Part shown: one piece after another, positions 60,694 through 63,585 of the stretch
How positions within the stretch are numbered: the stretch's first letter is position 1
Layout of the letters: each line of letters begins with the position of its first letter
Assembly (NCBI RefSeq): GCF_053078305.1
Contig: NZ_CP166879.1
DNA length: 64,000 nucleotides
Reading direction: 5' to 3' (one strand)
Notes under the pieces: model-generated
The model's database searches: none
Seen by the model: the letters and a program-made list of their open reading frames with translations, nothing else
What the model was told of the DNA's origin: nothing
Made by a program: the position numbers and the translations under genes

Positions 60694-62376
60694 ATGAAGT
60701 CTGCATTAAAGAAAAGTGTCGTAAGTACCTCGATATCTTTGATACTGGCATCTGGTATGGCTGCATTTGCTGCTCATGCAGCAGATGATGTAAAGCTGAA
60801 AGCAACCAAAACAAACGTTGCTTTCTCAGACTTTACGCCGACAGAATACAGTACCAAAGGAAAGCCAAATATTATCGTACTGACCATGGATGATCTTGGT
60901 TATGGACAACTTCCTTTTGATAAGGGATCTTTTGACCCAAAAACAATGGAAAATCGTGAAGTTGTCGATACCTACAAAATAGGGATAGATAAAGCCATTG
61001 AAGCTGCACAAAAATCAACGCCGACGCTCCTTTCATTAATGGATGAAGGCGTACGTTTTACTAACGGCTATGTGGCACACGGTGTTTCCGGCCCCTCCCG
61101 CGCCGCAATAATGACCGGTCGAGCTCCCGCCCGCTTTGGTGTCTATTCCAATACCGATGCTCAGGATGGTATTCCGCTCACAGAAACTTTCTTGCCTGAA
61201 TTATTCCAGAATCATGGTTATTACACTGCAGCAGTAGGTAAATGGCACTTGTCAAAAATCAGTAATGTGCCGGTACCGGAAGATAAACAAACACGTGACT
61301 ATCATGACAACTTCACCACATTTTCTGCGGAAGAATGGCAACCGCAAAACCGTGGCTTTGATTACTTTATGGGATTCCACGCTGCAGGAACGGCATATTA
61401 CAACTCCCCTTCACTGTTCAAAAATCGTGAACGCGTCCCCGCAAAAGGTTATATCAGCGATCAGTTAACCGATGAGGCAATTGGCGTTGTTGATCGTGCC
61501 AAAACACTTGACCAGCCTTTTATGCTTTACCTGGCTTATAATGCTCCGCACCTGCCAAATGATAATCCTGCACCGGATCAATATCAGAAGCAATTTAATA
61601 CCGGTAGTCAAACGGCAGATAACTACTACGCTTCCGTTTATTCTGTTGATCAGGGTGTAAAACGCATTCTCGAACAACTGAAGAAAAACGGACAGTATGA
61701 CAATACAATTATTCTCTTTACCTCCGATAATGGTGCGGTTATCGATGGTCCTCTGCCGCTGAACGGGGCGCAAAAAGGCTATAAGAGTCAGACCTATCCT
61801 GGCGGTACTCACACCCCAATGTTTATGTGGTGGAAAGGAAAACTTCAACCCGGTAATTATGACAAGCTGATTTCCGCAATGGATTTCTACCCGACAGCTC
61901 TTGATGCAGCCGATATCAGCATTCCAAAAGACCTTAAGCTGGATGGCGTTTCCTTGCTGCCCTGGTTGCAAGATAAGAAACAAGGCGAGCCACATAAAAA
62001 TCTGACCTGGATAACCTCTTATTCTCACTGGTTTGATGAGGAAAATATTCCATTCTGGGATAACTACCACAAATTTGTCCGTCATCAGTCAGACGATTAC
62101 CCGCATAACCCCAACACTGAGGACTTAAGCCAATTCTCTTATACGGTGAGAAATAACGATTATTCGCTTGTCTATACAGTAGAAAACAATCAGTTAGGTC
62201 TCTACAAACTGACGGATCTACAGCAAAAAGATAACCTTGCCGCCGCCAATCCGCAGGTCGTTAAAGAGATGCAAGGCGTGGTAAGAGAGTTTATCGACAG
62301 CAGCCAGCCACCGCTTAGCGAGGTAAATCAGGAGAAGTTTAACAATATCAAGAAAGCACTAAGCGAAGCGAAATAA
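60694..62376 (+). CDS. ydeN: Periplasmic sulfatase (formylglycine-dependent family)
   Basis: 560 aa from MKSALKK; sulfatase active-site region SGPSRAAIMTGR. Confidence 0.9.
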   Translation: MKSALKKSVVSTSISLILASGMAAFAAHAADDVKLKATKTNVAFSDFTPTEYSTKGKPNIIVLTMDDLGYGQLPFDKGSFDPKTMENREVVDTYKIGIDKAIEAAQKSTPTLLSLMDEGVRFTNGYVAHGVSGPSRAAIMTGRAPARFGVYSNTDAQDGIPLTETFLPELFQNHGYYTAAVGKWHLSKISNVPVPEDKQTRDYHDNFTTFSAEEWQPQNRGFDYFMGFHAAGTAYYNSPSLFKNRERVPAKGYISDQLTDEAIGVVDRAKTLDQPFMLYLAYNAPHLPNDNPAPDQYQKQFNTGSQTADNYYASVYSVDQGVKRILEQLKKNGQYDNTIILFTSDNGAVIDGPLPLNGAQKGYKSQTYPGGTHTPMFMWWKGKLQPGNYDKLISAMDFYPTALDAADISIPKDLKLDGVSLLPWLQDKKQGEPHKNLTWITSYSHWFDEENIPFWDNYHKFVRHQSDDYPHNPNTEDLSQFSYTVRNNDYSLVYTVENNQLGLYKLTDLQQKDNLAAANPQVVKEMQGVVREFIDSSQPPLSEVNQEKFNNIKKALSEAK

Positions 62377-62388
62377 CTAAACCTTCAT

Positions 62389-62414
62389 GCGGCGGATTTT
62401 TCCGCCGCCTTATT
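62389..62414 (+). terminator. Hairpin GCGGCGGA/TCCGCCGC after ydeN
   Basis: Inverted repeat with short T-rich tail. Confidence 0.45.
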
Positions 62415-62427
62415 GAGCGAGATAGCG

Positions 62428-63585
62428 ATGCACGTTACAGCCAAGCCCTCCAGTTTTCAATGTAATCTCAAATGTGATTACTGTTTTTACCTTGAAAAAG
62501 AGTCGCAGTTTACTCATGAAAAATGGATGGATGACAGCACTCTGAAAGAGTTCATCAAACAATATATCGCAGCGTCTGGCAATCAGGTCTATTTTACCTG
62601 GCAAGGCGGTGAACCCACTCTGGCTGGCCTGGATTTTTTCCGTAAAGTTATTCACTATCAACAACGCTATGCAGGCCAAAAACGTATTTTTAATGCATTA
62701 CAAACGAATGGCATTTTATTGAATAATGAATGGTGTGCCTTTCTCAAAGAACATGAATTTCTGGTTGGTATCTCGATCGATGGCCCCCAGGAGTTACATG
62801 ACCGTTACAGACGCAGTAATTCAGGTAACGGTACTTTTACAAAAGTGATAGCAGCCATCGAGCGTCTGAAATCATATCAAGTAGAGTTTAATACGTTAAC
62901 CGTCATTAATAACGTTAATGTCCATTACCCTCTTGAGGTTTATCATTTTTTAAAATCTATCGGCAGTAAACATATGCAATTTATCGAATTGCTAGAAACC
63001 GGGACGCCGAATATAGATTTCAGTGGTCATAGTGAGAACACATTCCGTATCATTGATTTTTCTGTGCCTCCCACGGCTTATGGCAAGTTTATGTCAACCA
63101 TTTTTATGCAATGGGTTAAAAACGATGTGGGTGAAGTTTTCATCCGTCAGTTTGAAAGCTTTGTCAGCCGTTTTTTGGGGAATGGGCATACCAGTTGTAT
63201 TTTCCAGGAGTCCTGCAAGGATAATCTGGTTGTTGAAAGTAATGGAGACATTTACGAATGCGACCATTTTGTCTATCCACAGTACAAAATTGGAAACATT
63301 AATAAATCTGAACTCAAAACGATGAACAGTGTACAACTGACAGCGCAAAAAAAACGGATTTCAGCGAAATGTCTGAAATGTGCATATAAACCTATCTGCA
63401 ATGGCGGTTGTCCTAAGCATCGTATTACTAAAGTAAACAATGAGACTGTTTCTTATTTTTGCGAAGGTTATAAAATCCTTTTTTCAACCATGGTACCTTA
63501 TATGAACGCCATGGTAGAGTTAGCTAAGAACAGAGTACCGCTTTACCACATTATGGATGTTGCAAAACAAATGGAGAATAATTAA
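62428..63585 (+). CDS. ydeM: Radical-SAM anaerobic sulfatase-maturating enzyme homologue
   Basis: 385 aa from [21 protein letters not shown] (CxxxCxxC radical-SAM motif). Confidence 0.9.

Follow-up and report, generated by a model that had tools for sequence, protein, structure and literature searches.

Do the two adjoining genes at positions 60694–63585 of the window, i.e., the whole stretch of 64,000 nucleotides analyzed here (contig NZ_CP166879.1 of RefSeq assembly GCF_053078305.1), retain what a sulfatase and its maturase need in order to work together, and if so, on which substrate would the sulfatase act?

Identity of the locus

The first gene, ydeN (60694–62376, plus strand; ATG at 60694, TAA at 62376), encodes the 560-residue precursor of a family S1 sulfatase of the Ser type, and the second, ydeM (62428–63585, plus strand; ATG at 62428, TAA at 63585), a 385-residue anaerobic sulfatase-maturating enzyme (anSME) of the radical-SAM/SPASM kind; a gap of 51 nt separates them. 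Both reading frames lie exactly where the original prediction had placed a sulfatase–maturase pair, and the names it gave them agree with the annotation of E. coli ES5 (NZ_CP133871.1), which is 100% identical to the region. DNA identity between the pair and K-12-like laboratory strains is 99.4%. The identical gene pair is annotated in RefSeq for E. coli K-12 as ydeN (b1498) and ydeM (b1497), where the neighbors, ydeP-safA-ydeO upstream and yneP/yddA downstream, match those in the window. There is no substantive difference from the K-12 pair; a few synonymous and rare amino-acid changes occur between phylogroups. The gene match and the presence of ydeN-ydeM across E. coli genomes are far beyond chance, and the pair consists of known, annotated E. 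coli genes, which makes the finding an ordinary, correct identification rather than a discovery. Fused "YdeO-YdeN"-like proteins among the top database matches (P0001, P0002, P0016 and P0021) were discarded as single-contig gene-calling artefacts.

YdeM retains the iron–sulfur cluster ligands of sulfatase maturases

The claim that the sulfatase gene adjoins a homologue of anaerobic sulfatase-maturating enzymes is borne out by the profile searches. YdeM is a radical-SAM protein that scores 503 bits against the NCBIfam model TIGR03942, "anaerobic sulfatase maturase" (curated cut-off 349), and residues 2–364 span model positions 1–362 of 363. The clostridial-type equivalog NF010321, with a cut-off of 441, yields 256, and TIGR03942, the general model, is the only one passed. 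Residues 4–359 align to the Clostridium perfringens enzyme anSMEcpe (PDB codes 4K36–4K39) with an E value of 4e-63 for 4K36.

Loss of the CxxxCxxC clusters, by which the original prediction would have been refuted, is not seen: inspection found the radical-SAM cluster motif C12-N-L-K-C16-D-Y-C19 (CNLKCDYC; 62461–62484, plus strand) in place, aligned to C15, C19 and C22 of anSMEcpe, together with eight C-terminal cluster cysteines in the SPASM region (63196–63462, plus strand). Of the auxiliary-cluster ligands, C257, C263, C278 and C328 align to anSMEcpe positions 255, 261, 276 and 330, and C315, C318, C324 and C345 to positions 317, 320, 326 and 348, while D279, next to the third auxiliary cysteine, corresponds to D277. 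The 11 cluster cysteines and this aspartate are kept in YdeM and in six orthologues or homologues, and the GGEP motif is likewise common to anSMEcpe and YdeM. The two sequences have nevertheless diverged, as the sub-threshold NF010321 score indicates, and whereas anSMEcpe natively serves a Cys-type sulfatase, YdeM is paired with one of the Ser type.

No report of YdeN or YdeM activity, of formylglycine mass spectrometry or of a substrate was found in the literature searched. Laboratory-grown E. coli K-12 is said, in work by Benjdia et al. of 2007 and Szameit et al. of 1999, to fail to mature foreign Ser-type sulfatases, so that a silent or very specific YdeM is conceivable; the work of Benjdia et al. 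reportedly included aslB/ydeM deletions.

YdeN is a Ser-type sulfatase with a predicted Sec signal peptide

YdeN had been described as a formylglycine-type sulfatase, and this description stands. The Pfam sulfatase model PF00884 is matched over its full length (1e-70; 239 bits, cut-off 25), with residues 58–408 spanning model positions 1–301 of 301. Inspection of the active-site signature, set as a test of the assignment, revealed no loss of the motif: it reads S132-G-P-S-R136-A-A-I-M-T141-G142, the core pentapeptide being encoded at 61087–61101 (plus strand) and the predicted formylglycine precursor Ser132 by the codon TCC at 61087–61089. The pentapeptide SGPSR occurs in 118 of the 120 closest YdeN homologues, and the nearest outgroups have Cys at the position of Ser132; as judged from these sequences, the Ser-type nucleophile is fixed within the YdeN clade. 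The original prediction was silent on YdeN being Ser-type. This status matters because the radical-SAM route is the only one known by which Ser-type sulfatases can be matured.

An alignment of 31 homologues identifies D66, D67, P134, R136, T141, K183, H185, H286, D345, N346 and K364 as invariant, a set that contains all of the S1 metal ligands (DD...DN; D66, D67, D345 and N346) and the catalytic Lys/His pairs (K183, H185, H286 and K364). The AlphaFold model of YdeN has a pLDDT of 89 and a pTM of 0.88, with residues 1–49 disordered.

Residues 1–29 (60694–60780, plus strand) constitute a predicted signal peptide of the Sec type, MKSALKKSVVSTSISLILASGMAAFAAHA, which would be cleaved after AHA, and the N-terminus contains neither a lipobox nor a genuine twin-arginine motif. 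An in-frame TTG at 60661 would add the extension MELSTIRRGTF, with a twin arginine, and was considered as a start codon for Tat export. It was rejected, as the RR merely translates the Shine-Dalgarno sequence AAGAGGA (60681–60687) of the ATG at 60694, the TTG itself has no ribosome-binding site, and orthologue N-termini lack RR. Sec is consequently the favored, predicted route for YdeN export.

With its predicted signal peptide and adjoining radical-SAM maturase gene, YdeN conforms to the Ser-type subclass. The prototype of a Ser-type sulfatase with a radical-SAM maturase is AtsA/AtsB of Klebsiella pneumoniae, in which the formylglycine of a periplasmic S1 sulfatase is made before export by an adjoining three-cluster radical-SAM enzyme; by analogy, the same logic would extend to YdeN/YdeM. 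This shared architecture could be taken to mean that YdeN is a general arylsulfatase that scavenges sulfur as AtsA does, and the sole chemical inducer of YdeN reported, a sulfonated aromatic azo dye (PMC10653809), fits such a role. However, the NCBIfam arylsulfatase equivalog gives YdeN 124 bits, far below the cut-off of 481, its close relatives that are characterized or informative by context are all carbohydrate sulfatases, and the regulators reported for the locus are AraC and GadX and none of sulfur starvation, whereas AtsA is under sulfur and tyramine control. We thus consider a scavenging arylsulfatase quite improbable.

The pair is core to E. coli and recurs as a cassette in other genera

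Matches covering at least 80% of the query were found for ydeN-ydeM in 5322–5323 of 5426 complete E. coli genomes (~98%). This does not agree with the earlier remark that the pair is more typical of gut anaerobes: it belongs to the E. coli core and was not borrowed from obligate gut anaerobes, and YdeN orthologues, at 72–84% identity, belong to facultative anaerobes and other Proteobacteria (Yersinia, Salmonella, Citrobacter, Proteus, Aeromonas, Shewanella, Iodobacter and Anaerobiospirillum).

Purifying selection acts on both genes, with dN/dS ratios between phylogroups of 0.024 for ydeN and 0.127 for ydeM. These values, the reading frames intact in ~98% of the 5426 genomes and the retention of all catalytic and cluster residues speak against the view of ydeN-ydeM as a remnant, cryptic or in decay, that no longer serves E. 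coli, as do signals of expression and fitness in vivo: ydeM is upregulated alongside nagABE and galP in the mouse gut (PMC10878103) and was among the TraDIS hits in cystitis (PMC8767336). Such a remnant would be in keeping with the lack of a known sulfatase phenotype in K-12, with an insertion sequence that disrupts ydeM in occasional strains (H21 and H22), and with the AT-rich regulatory region 5′ of ydeN (60372–60693, plus strand; GC 0.29), which is probably silenced; weighed together, the evidence makes it very improbable.

The order sulfatase, then radical-SAM enzyme, is shared by six genera, the neighbors being unrelated each time; outside E. coli the cassette is found in Yersinia, Salmonella, Aeromonas, Iodobacter and Anaerobiospirillum. 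Within the same taxa YdeN identity is ~74–82% and that of YdeM ~64–68%, and the corresponding Plesiomonas proteins are 42% and 43% identical, a sequence pattern that indicates co-divergence of the two proteins. Identity within the YdeN clade is at least 72%, followed by a gap down to 41–45%, and the nearest outgroup is a Cys-type clade (Vibrionaceae, Plesiomonas, Salmonella) located in chondroitin/GalNAc loci.

Flanking and intergenic elements

A terminator-like hairpin with a T-run follows ydeO at 60340–60362 (plus strand; 8-bp stem with 6 GC pairs, tail CGTTGTTTTT) and scores on the minus strand too; as an upstream boundary, it would make ydeN-ydeM a separate transcription unit. A -35/-10-like pair is present upstream of ydeN at 60627–60656. 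The AraC regulon was reportedly treated by Stringer et al. in 2014. AraC is reported to bind upstream of ydeN in an arabinose-dependent manner (PMC3738151), and GadX to act there as a repressor (PMC4918353). A scan of 60290–60700 for the AraC half-site TAGC-N7-TCCATA returned matches with 3–4 mismatches at best and no 21-bp tandem pair, half-site matches across the window did not exceed the count expected by chance, and neither the AraC nor the GadX site reported upstream of ydeN was placed in the sequence by site search.

The spacer between the genes contains a hairpin with an 8-bp GC-rich stem, GCGGCGGA-UUUU-UCCGCCGC (62389–62408, plus strand; -18.7 kcal/mol, z -3.1). Of the six genera with the cassette, five have a spacer hairpin, which in Aeromonas, Yersinia and Iodobacter takes the same position with another sequence, and is weaker in Salmonella. 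The recurrence of this cassette, and of a GC-rich hairpin in most of its spacers, is a new observation here. A canonical intrinsic terminator was considered for this element and rejected: the terminator scan made no call because the T-tract is weak, and with such a tract the hairpin is likely to be a partial terminator or a stabilizer of the mRNA 3′ end. An Rfam scan yielded just a sub-threshold match to isrK on the opposite strand (20 bits, threshold 50, E 0.26), taken as chance, and a repeat scan nothing meaningful.

A galacto-configured substrate is suggested by the closest characterized homologue

The remark in the original prediction that the substrate is unknown in E. coli is consistent with a 2024 paper in which substrates of YdeN are unreported (PMC10878103), and the YdeN subfamily was not found in the text of the SulfAtlas paper. 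The closest experimentally characterized homologue is PB_3285 of Photobacterium sp. QA16, a chondroitin sulfate GalNAc-6-O-exosulfatase that is inactive on a 4-sulfated disaccharide (PMC8819143); its sequence was identified by means of the primers given in that paper and the residues C109, P111 and R113. YdeN residues 42–542 align to it with 39.9% identity over 504 residues (E 1e-134), a level of identity that does not fix specificity. In both proteins the nucleophile lies an unusual 66 residues, a common insert included, from the DD ligands, and YdeN shares with the PB_3285 clade the motifs YSNxDA, TRDYHD and FNTG and a signal peptide.

That clade comprises sequences from Vibrionaceae, Plesiomonas, Salmonella, Edwardsiella, Providencia and Pasteurellaceae, and differs from YdeN in several respects. 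The nucleophile is Cys in PB_3285 (C109) and Ser in YdeN, which also has an extra N-terminal segment of ~20 residues. In the loci examined (Plesiomonas, Salmonella and P. damselae), the sulfatase gene is directly preceded by the anSME gene, whereas in ydeN-ydeM the maturase gene is downstream. Furthermore, the clade is embedded in chondroitin/GalNAc utilization loci that hold a GalNAc PTS, GH88, chondroitin lyases and a KdgM porin, whereas ydeN-ydeM stands alone, with no linked transporter, glycosidase, GAG or GalNAc genes at the E. coli locus. Since YdeN forms a separate clade, is Ser-type and has no GAG or GalNAc genes nearby, it is a homologue, and not a member, of the PB_3285 clade.

The closest solved structures to YdeN are S1_19 carrageenan sulfatases (PDB codes 9HH2, 6B0J and 6PSM), with TM-scores of 0.65/0.8 and the same catalytic core. 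These Cys-type enzymes act on marine polysaccharides, and together with S1_16 the nearest folds are Gal-4-sulfate sulfatases, i.e., enzymes that also have galacto-configured substrates. The nearest solved structures point to 4-O-sulfate, against a 6-O reading. These PDB matches (E ~1e-50, Foldseek E 5e-36 for S1_19, followed by S1_16), along with the chondroitin contexts, gave rise to the first substrate idea, according to which YdeN would remove the 4-O-sulfate of galactose- or GalNAc-4-sulfate in the manner of a chondro-4-sulfatase or of S1_19/S1_16. It was downgraded in the light of a 6J66-type neighbor and the PB_3285 match. The S1_19 and S1_16 alignments are much weaker than that of PB_3285, the main sequence match covering residues 109–436 only and the full-length fold alignments showing 26–28% identity compared with 40%; the structures also lack a ~28-residue insert that follows the first strand of YdeN, and those of S1_19 its C-terminal region. 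PB_3285, moreover, does not accept the 4-sulfated disaccharide. In the Plesiomonas locus of the sister clade, the second sulfatase is a 6J66-like 4-O-sulfatase (E 1.6e-288), and where a separate enzyme of this kind serves the 4-O position, the YdeN-like enzyme is left for another. A 4-O-sulfatase is thus unlikely.

A role in the desulfation of GlcNAc-6-sulfate or other mucin O-glycan sulfates was the speculation of the mouse-gut adaptation paper, in which YdeN is 33% similar to the B. thetaiotaomicron GlcNAc-6-O-sulfatase BT4656 and nagABE are co-induced (PMC10878103). GlcNAc-6-sulfate and GalNAc-6-sulfate differ at C4 only. The match to BT4656 (PDB code 5G2V) is, however, partial and far weaker than those to PB_3285 or S1_19 (E 6e-30, Foldseek rank 43), and we give this reading a small chance. 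Based on homology, our best guess, and a tentative one, is that YdeN acts on a small sulfated galacto-sugar, N-acetylgalactosamine-6-sulfate in the first place; this lead is new here.

Proposed mechanism

Taken together, the evidence makes it likely that ydeN and ydeM form a two-gene module, complete in itself, for a sulfate-ester hydrolase of the periplasm whose formylglycine would be made by YdeM before export. In the cytoplasm YdeM, with its three predicted [4Fe-4S] clusters, would bind the unfolded YdeN precursor, abstract a hydrogen from C-beta of Ser132 in S-G-P-S-R and oxidize the residue to C-alpha-formylglycine without oxygen. Sec would then export pre-YdeN, the signal peptide of 29 residues would be removed, and in the periplasm the hydrated formylglycine, with a divalent metal bound by D66, D67, D345 and N346, would hydrolyze the sulfate ester. 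The spacer hairpin and a weak ydeM ribosome-binding site probably hold the maturase below the level of the sulfatase. As substrate, a sulfated galacto-configured sugar small enough to pass through porins is the most likely; the best guess, GalNAc-6-sulfate, could be the free sugar or the reducing-end unit of fragments that other gut bacteria release from chondroitin or mucin.

A further, doubtful reading concerns the origin and use of the cassette, which may be a mobile, stand-alone Ser-type derivative of the GalNAc-6-O-sulfatase/anSME pair of chondroitin loci. E. coli and other facultative enterics would use it to desulfate, in the periplasm, GalNAc-6-sulfate or related sulfated sugars that Bacteroides releases from chondroitin sulfate or mucin, the sugar would feed housekeeping uptake (e.g., the GalNAc PTS), and AraC would shut the cassette off with diet-derived arabinose.

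Implications for enteric bacteria

YdeN and YdeM belong to the E. coli "y-genes" without a demonstrated activity, yet nearly every strain has them and purifying selection on them is strong. If the lead to GalNAc-6-sulfate is true, the only Ser-type sulfatase of E. coli would gain a substrate, the reason why the organism keeps a dedicated anaerobic maturase would be explained, and facultative enterics would have one more concrete way to benefit from the breakdown of host glycans by Bacteroides. In practice, the pair also matters for the choice of E. coli hosts and growth conditions in which recombinant Ser-type sulfatases can be matured. Should the reading of the cassette hold as well, ydeN-ydeM would be a module dedicated to cross-feeding on sulfated sugars from the host.

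Identity and genomic setting

The two open reading frames occupy 60694-62376 (ydeN, + strand, 560 residues counted from the ATG) and 62428-63585 (ydeM, + strand, 385 residues), and the 3.4-kb region spanning them is 100% identical in E. coli ES5 (NZ_CP133871.1), where they are annotated as 'sulfatase-like hydrolase/transferase' and 'anaerobic sulfatase maturase'. YdeN covers the whole Pfam Sulfatase model (1e-70), and YdeM passes the NCBIfam equivalog TIGR03942 with 503 bits (cut-off 349); the original prediction of a sulfatase with an adjoining anaerobic maturase homologue is thus borne out by exact reading frames, ES5 annotation and both family models. 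Of 5426 complete E. coli genomes searched by megablast, 5322-5323 hold at least 80% of the query. Eight matches lie on plasmids, and some genomes carry two matches.

Upstream of the pair lie ydeP, safA and ydeO, and downstream the small antisense ORF yneP, followed by yddA. The yneP frame (63551-63673, - strand, 40 residues) is convergent to ydeM and overlaps its final 35 nt; many E. coli genomes label it 'protein YneP', and ES5 labels it 'hypothetical protein'. A terminator-like hairpin with a T-run 3' of ydeO (60340-60362), a -35/-10-like pair (60627-60656) inside the 322-bp stretch of GC 0.29 between that hairpin and ydeN, and a strong Shine-Dalgarno sequence, AAGAGGA, 6 bases 5' of the ATG, together argue that ydeN-ydeM forms a separate transcription unit. 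The matching ES5 annotation lists two pseudogenes. One, an ECSE_1600-family autotransporter with a frameshift, lies within the window (about 41900-47300; ES5 2587810-2593174); the other, yddB, a TonB-dependent receptor gene interrupted by a stop codon, lies just past the downstream end of the window (11199-13571 of comparison locus L001).

Active-site motifs and selection

The original prediction was made to depend on the sulfatase C/S-x-P-x-R motif and the YdeM CxxxCxxC clusters, both of which are present. The YdeN signature reads S132-G-P-S-R136-AAIM-T-G, of the Ser-type formylglycine class, and across 31 aligned homologues, the most distant at 31% identity, the metal ligands Asp66, Asp67, Asp345 and Asn346 and the catalytic Arg136, Lys183, His185, His286 and Lys364 are invariant. 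YdeM residues 4-359 align with the solved Clostridium perfringens maturase anSMEcpe (E 4e-63), placing Cys12, Cys16 and Cys19 opposite Cys15, Cys19 and Cys22, which we take from the published structure to be the radical-SAM cluster ligands. Eight further cysteines, Cys257, Cys263, Cys278 and Cys328 together with Cys315, Cys318, Cys324 and Cys345, stand opposite anSMEcpe Cys255, Cys261, Cys276 and Cys330 and Cys317, Cys320, Cys326 and Cys348, two sets whose cluster assignment likewise follows that structure, and Asp279 stands opposite Asp277. On every sequence criterion tested, the pair consists of bona fide S1 sulfatase and anSME family members.

Compared with one APEC phylogroup-B2-like strain (97.9% DNA identity), ydeN shows 33 synonymous and 3 non-synonymous changes (dN/dS 0.024) and ydeM 15 and 8 (dN/dS 0.127); an IS element within ydeM is found in occasional E. 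coli strains only (matches H21 and H22). Selection is thus maintaining both genes.

A mobile cassette with a spacer hairpin

Among the 120 database proteins closest to YdeN, SGPSR is present in all 118 in which the signature could be located. Orthologues of 72-84% identity occur in Leminorella, Salmonella, Citrobacter, Yersinia pestis/pseudotuberculosis, Proteus, Shewanella, Aeromonas veronii, Iodobacter and Anaerobiospirillum. In every locus examined (Aeromonas, Yersinia, Salmonella, Iodobacter and Anaerobiospirillum) the sulfatase precedes the radical-SAM gene, and the flanks differ entirely among the five genera: Aeromonas has transposases, Salmonella an integrase and TraI element, and Yersinia an ABC transporter. 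Identity of the YdeM orthologues is 64-68% in Salmonella, Yersinia, Iodobacter and Aeromonas and 52% in Anaerobiospirillum, and all keep 11/11 cluster cysteines. These comparisons indicate that the pair is a conserved mobile cassette. The Aeromonas cassette has a porin gene about 1.8 kb upstream, with a transposase gene between (6156-7235 of locus L002). A further YdeN-like sulfatase, again Ser-type, is present in some E. coli (565 residues, 77% identity, a cluster of 303 sequences; 2615-5544 of L006, also L007), with a porin gene immediately upstream and IS110 debris downstream in place of a maturase gene.

After the ydeN stop codon lies a GC-rich hairpin (62389-62408; -18.7 kcal/mol, z -3.1), identical in the APEC strain. 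Such hairpins also follow the sulfatase stop in Aeromonas, Yersinia and Iodobacter, with a weaker one in Salmonella, and their stem sequences differ; position is conserved across genera and sequence is not (about 10696-10719 of L002, 10680-10706 of L004 and 9696-9720 of L011), and Aeromonas and Iodobacter show compensatory stem changes (CAGG/CCUG versus UAGG/CCUA). Since a U-tract is mostly absent and the ydeM ribosome-binding site is weak, we infer that the hairpin may be a device lowering maturase relative to sulfatase, which it would do by partial termination or 3'-end stabilization.

Relatives and a substrate lead

When 50%-identity cluster representatives are searched exhaustively, the YdeN clade stands isolated, its next relatives being just 41-45% identical and Cys-type; both share an unusual spacing of ~66 residues from the DD metal ligands to the nucleophile (the other mode is ~40). 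The nearest outgroup, a Plesiomonas shigelloides sulfatase (42% identity), is encoded with a DeoR regulator, GatZ/KbaZ, an AgaS-like SIS protein, a KbaY-like aldolase, a mannose-family (GalNAc-type) PTS, a KdgM porin, an anSME, a DUF2264 protein and a second sulfatase near-identical to 6J66, a chondroitin/dermatan 4-O-endosulfatase of solved structure (E 1.6e-288). Salmonella members of this outgroup clade lie beside GH88 and a GalNAc-type PTS, and those of Photobacterium damselae and Ancylomarina beside chondroitin lyases.

One member, P0405, bears the database name 'chondroitin sulfate N-acetyl-galactosamine 6-O-sulfatase [Photobacterium sp.]' and is PB_3285, the cloning primers of which encode QGTAEQPN (residue 29) and the C-terminus ILTVSAQ (PMC8819143); in P0405 QGTAEQPN begins at residue 29, behind a 28-residue signal peptide, C, P and R occupy positions 109, 111 and 113, and 535 residues fit the 1608-bp gene. 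On chondroitin oligosaccharides PB_3285 strips 6-O-sulfate from the GalNAc6S at the reducing end and from no other residue, resembling the classical Proteus chondro-6-sulfatase (PMC8819143), and YdeN residues 42-542 match it at 39.9% identity (E 1e-134). In the Plesiomonas, Salmonella and Photobacterium chondroitin/GalNAc loci a DUF2264 (PF10022) gene always lies 3' of the PB_3285-type sulfatase (11836-13248 of L014, 11815-13296 of L017, 11821-13359 of L018); this tightly linked partner may be a glycoside hydrolase that acts on the product after desulfation.

The best solved structures for YdeN are S1_19 carrageenan Gal-4-sulfate sulfatases, the main sequence alignments covering residues 109-436 only, without the insert; Foldseek also ranks S1_19 first (26-28% identity), then S1_16, and none of the solved structures comes from the YdeN/PB_3285 subfamily. 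Action on 4-O-sulfated Gal/GalNAc is thus one rival to a 6-O-sulfated substrate; others are GlcNAc-6S or mucin sulfates, and aryl sulfates. The relatives described here all act on galacto-configured sulfated sugars. In E. coli ydeNM has neither a chondroitin lyase nor a GH88 gene next to it, and the cassette is without a transporter in 5/6 genera, which makes a small porin-permeant sugar such as free GalNAc-6-sulfate the most economical guess, one we hold tentatively and at less than even confidence.

Export and maturation

The YdeN N-terminus (MKSALKKSVVSTSISLILASGMAAFAAHA followed by ADD) reads as a classical Sec/signal-peptidase-I signal and contains no lipobox; the twin arginine of a longer TTG-initiated ydeN frame, considered as a Tat signal, is merely the translated Shine-Dalgarno sequence. 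The AlphaFold model is confident (pLDDT 89, pTM 0.88) except for residues 1-49, which are disordered. The Sec pathway exports chains unfolded, and AtsA is matured by AtsB in the cytoplasm as an unfolded peptide. Since known sulfatase maturases work in the cytoplasm, on peptide that is still unfolded (PMC7771511), YdeN would be expected to be modified there first and exported second.

Regulation and phenotypes

AraC binds upstream of ydeN with arabinose only (PMC3738151), an araC mutant expresses ydeMN strongly, and in the mouse gut ydeM is up together with nagABE and galP (PMC10878103, whose authors state that YdeN substrates are unreported). The window also holds ydeA, annotated as an L-arabinose MFS transporter (about 21300-22500; ES5 2612604-2613794), and dcp (about 12200-14300; ES5 2620911-2622956), one of the known AraC target regions (PMC3738151). 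GadX represses ydeN (PMC4918353), and ydeM is a strong hit in mouse cystitis TraDIS (PMC8767336). With the sulfonated azo dye FD&C Red 40, ydeN is the sole E. coli transcript induced, and it is dispensable for Red 40 reduction (PMC10653809). The dye is a sulfonate and not a sulfate ester, an unexpected inducer for a sulfatase gene.

Discussion

The finding correctly identifies a gene pair that E. coli annotation already records. ydeN-ydeM would work like Klebsiella AtsA/AtsB. YdeN is a homologue and not a member of the PB_3285 clade, from which it differs by its Ser nucleophile, separate clade, reverse gene order and lack of a GAG locus. Sulfatase maturation in E. coli is incompletely understood; it involves aslB and ydeM, and a third system is suspected (PMC8379841). 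To the annotated pair the present analysis adds the verification of both signatures as intact, evidence of purifying selection, the anatomy of a mobile cassette with its hairpin, and a specific, testable substrate lead.
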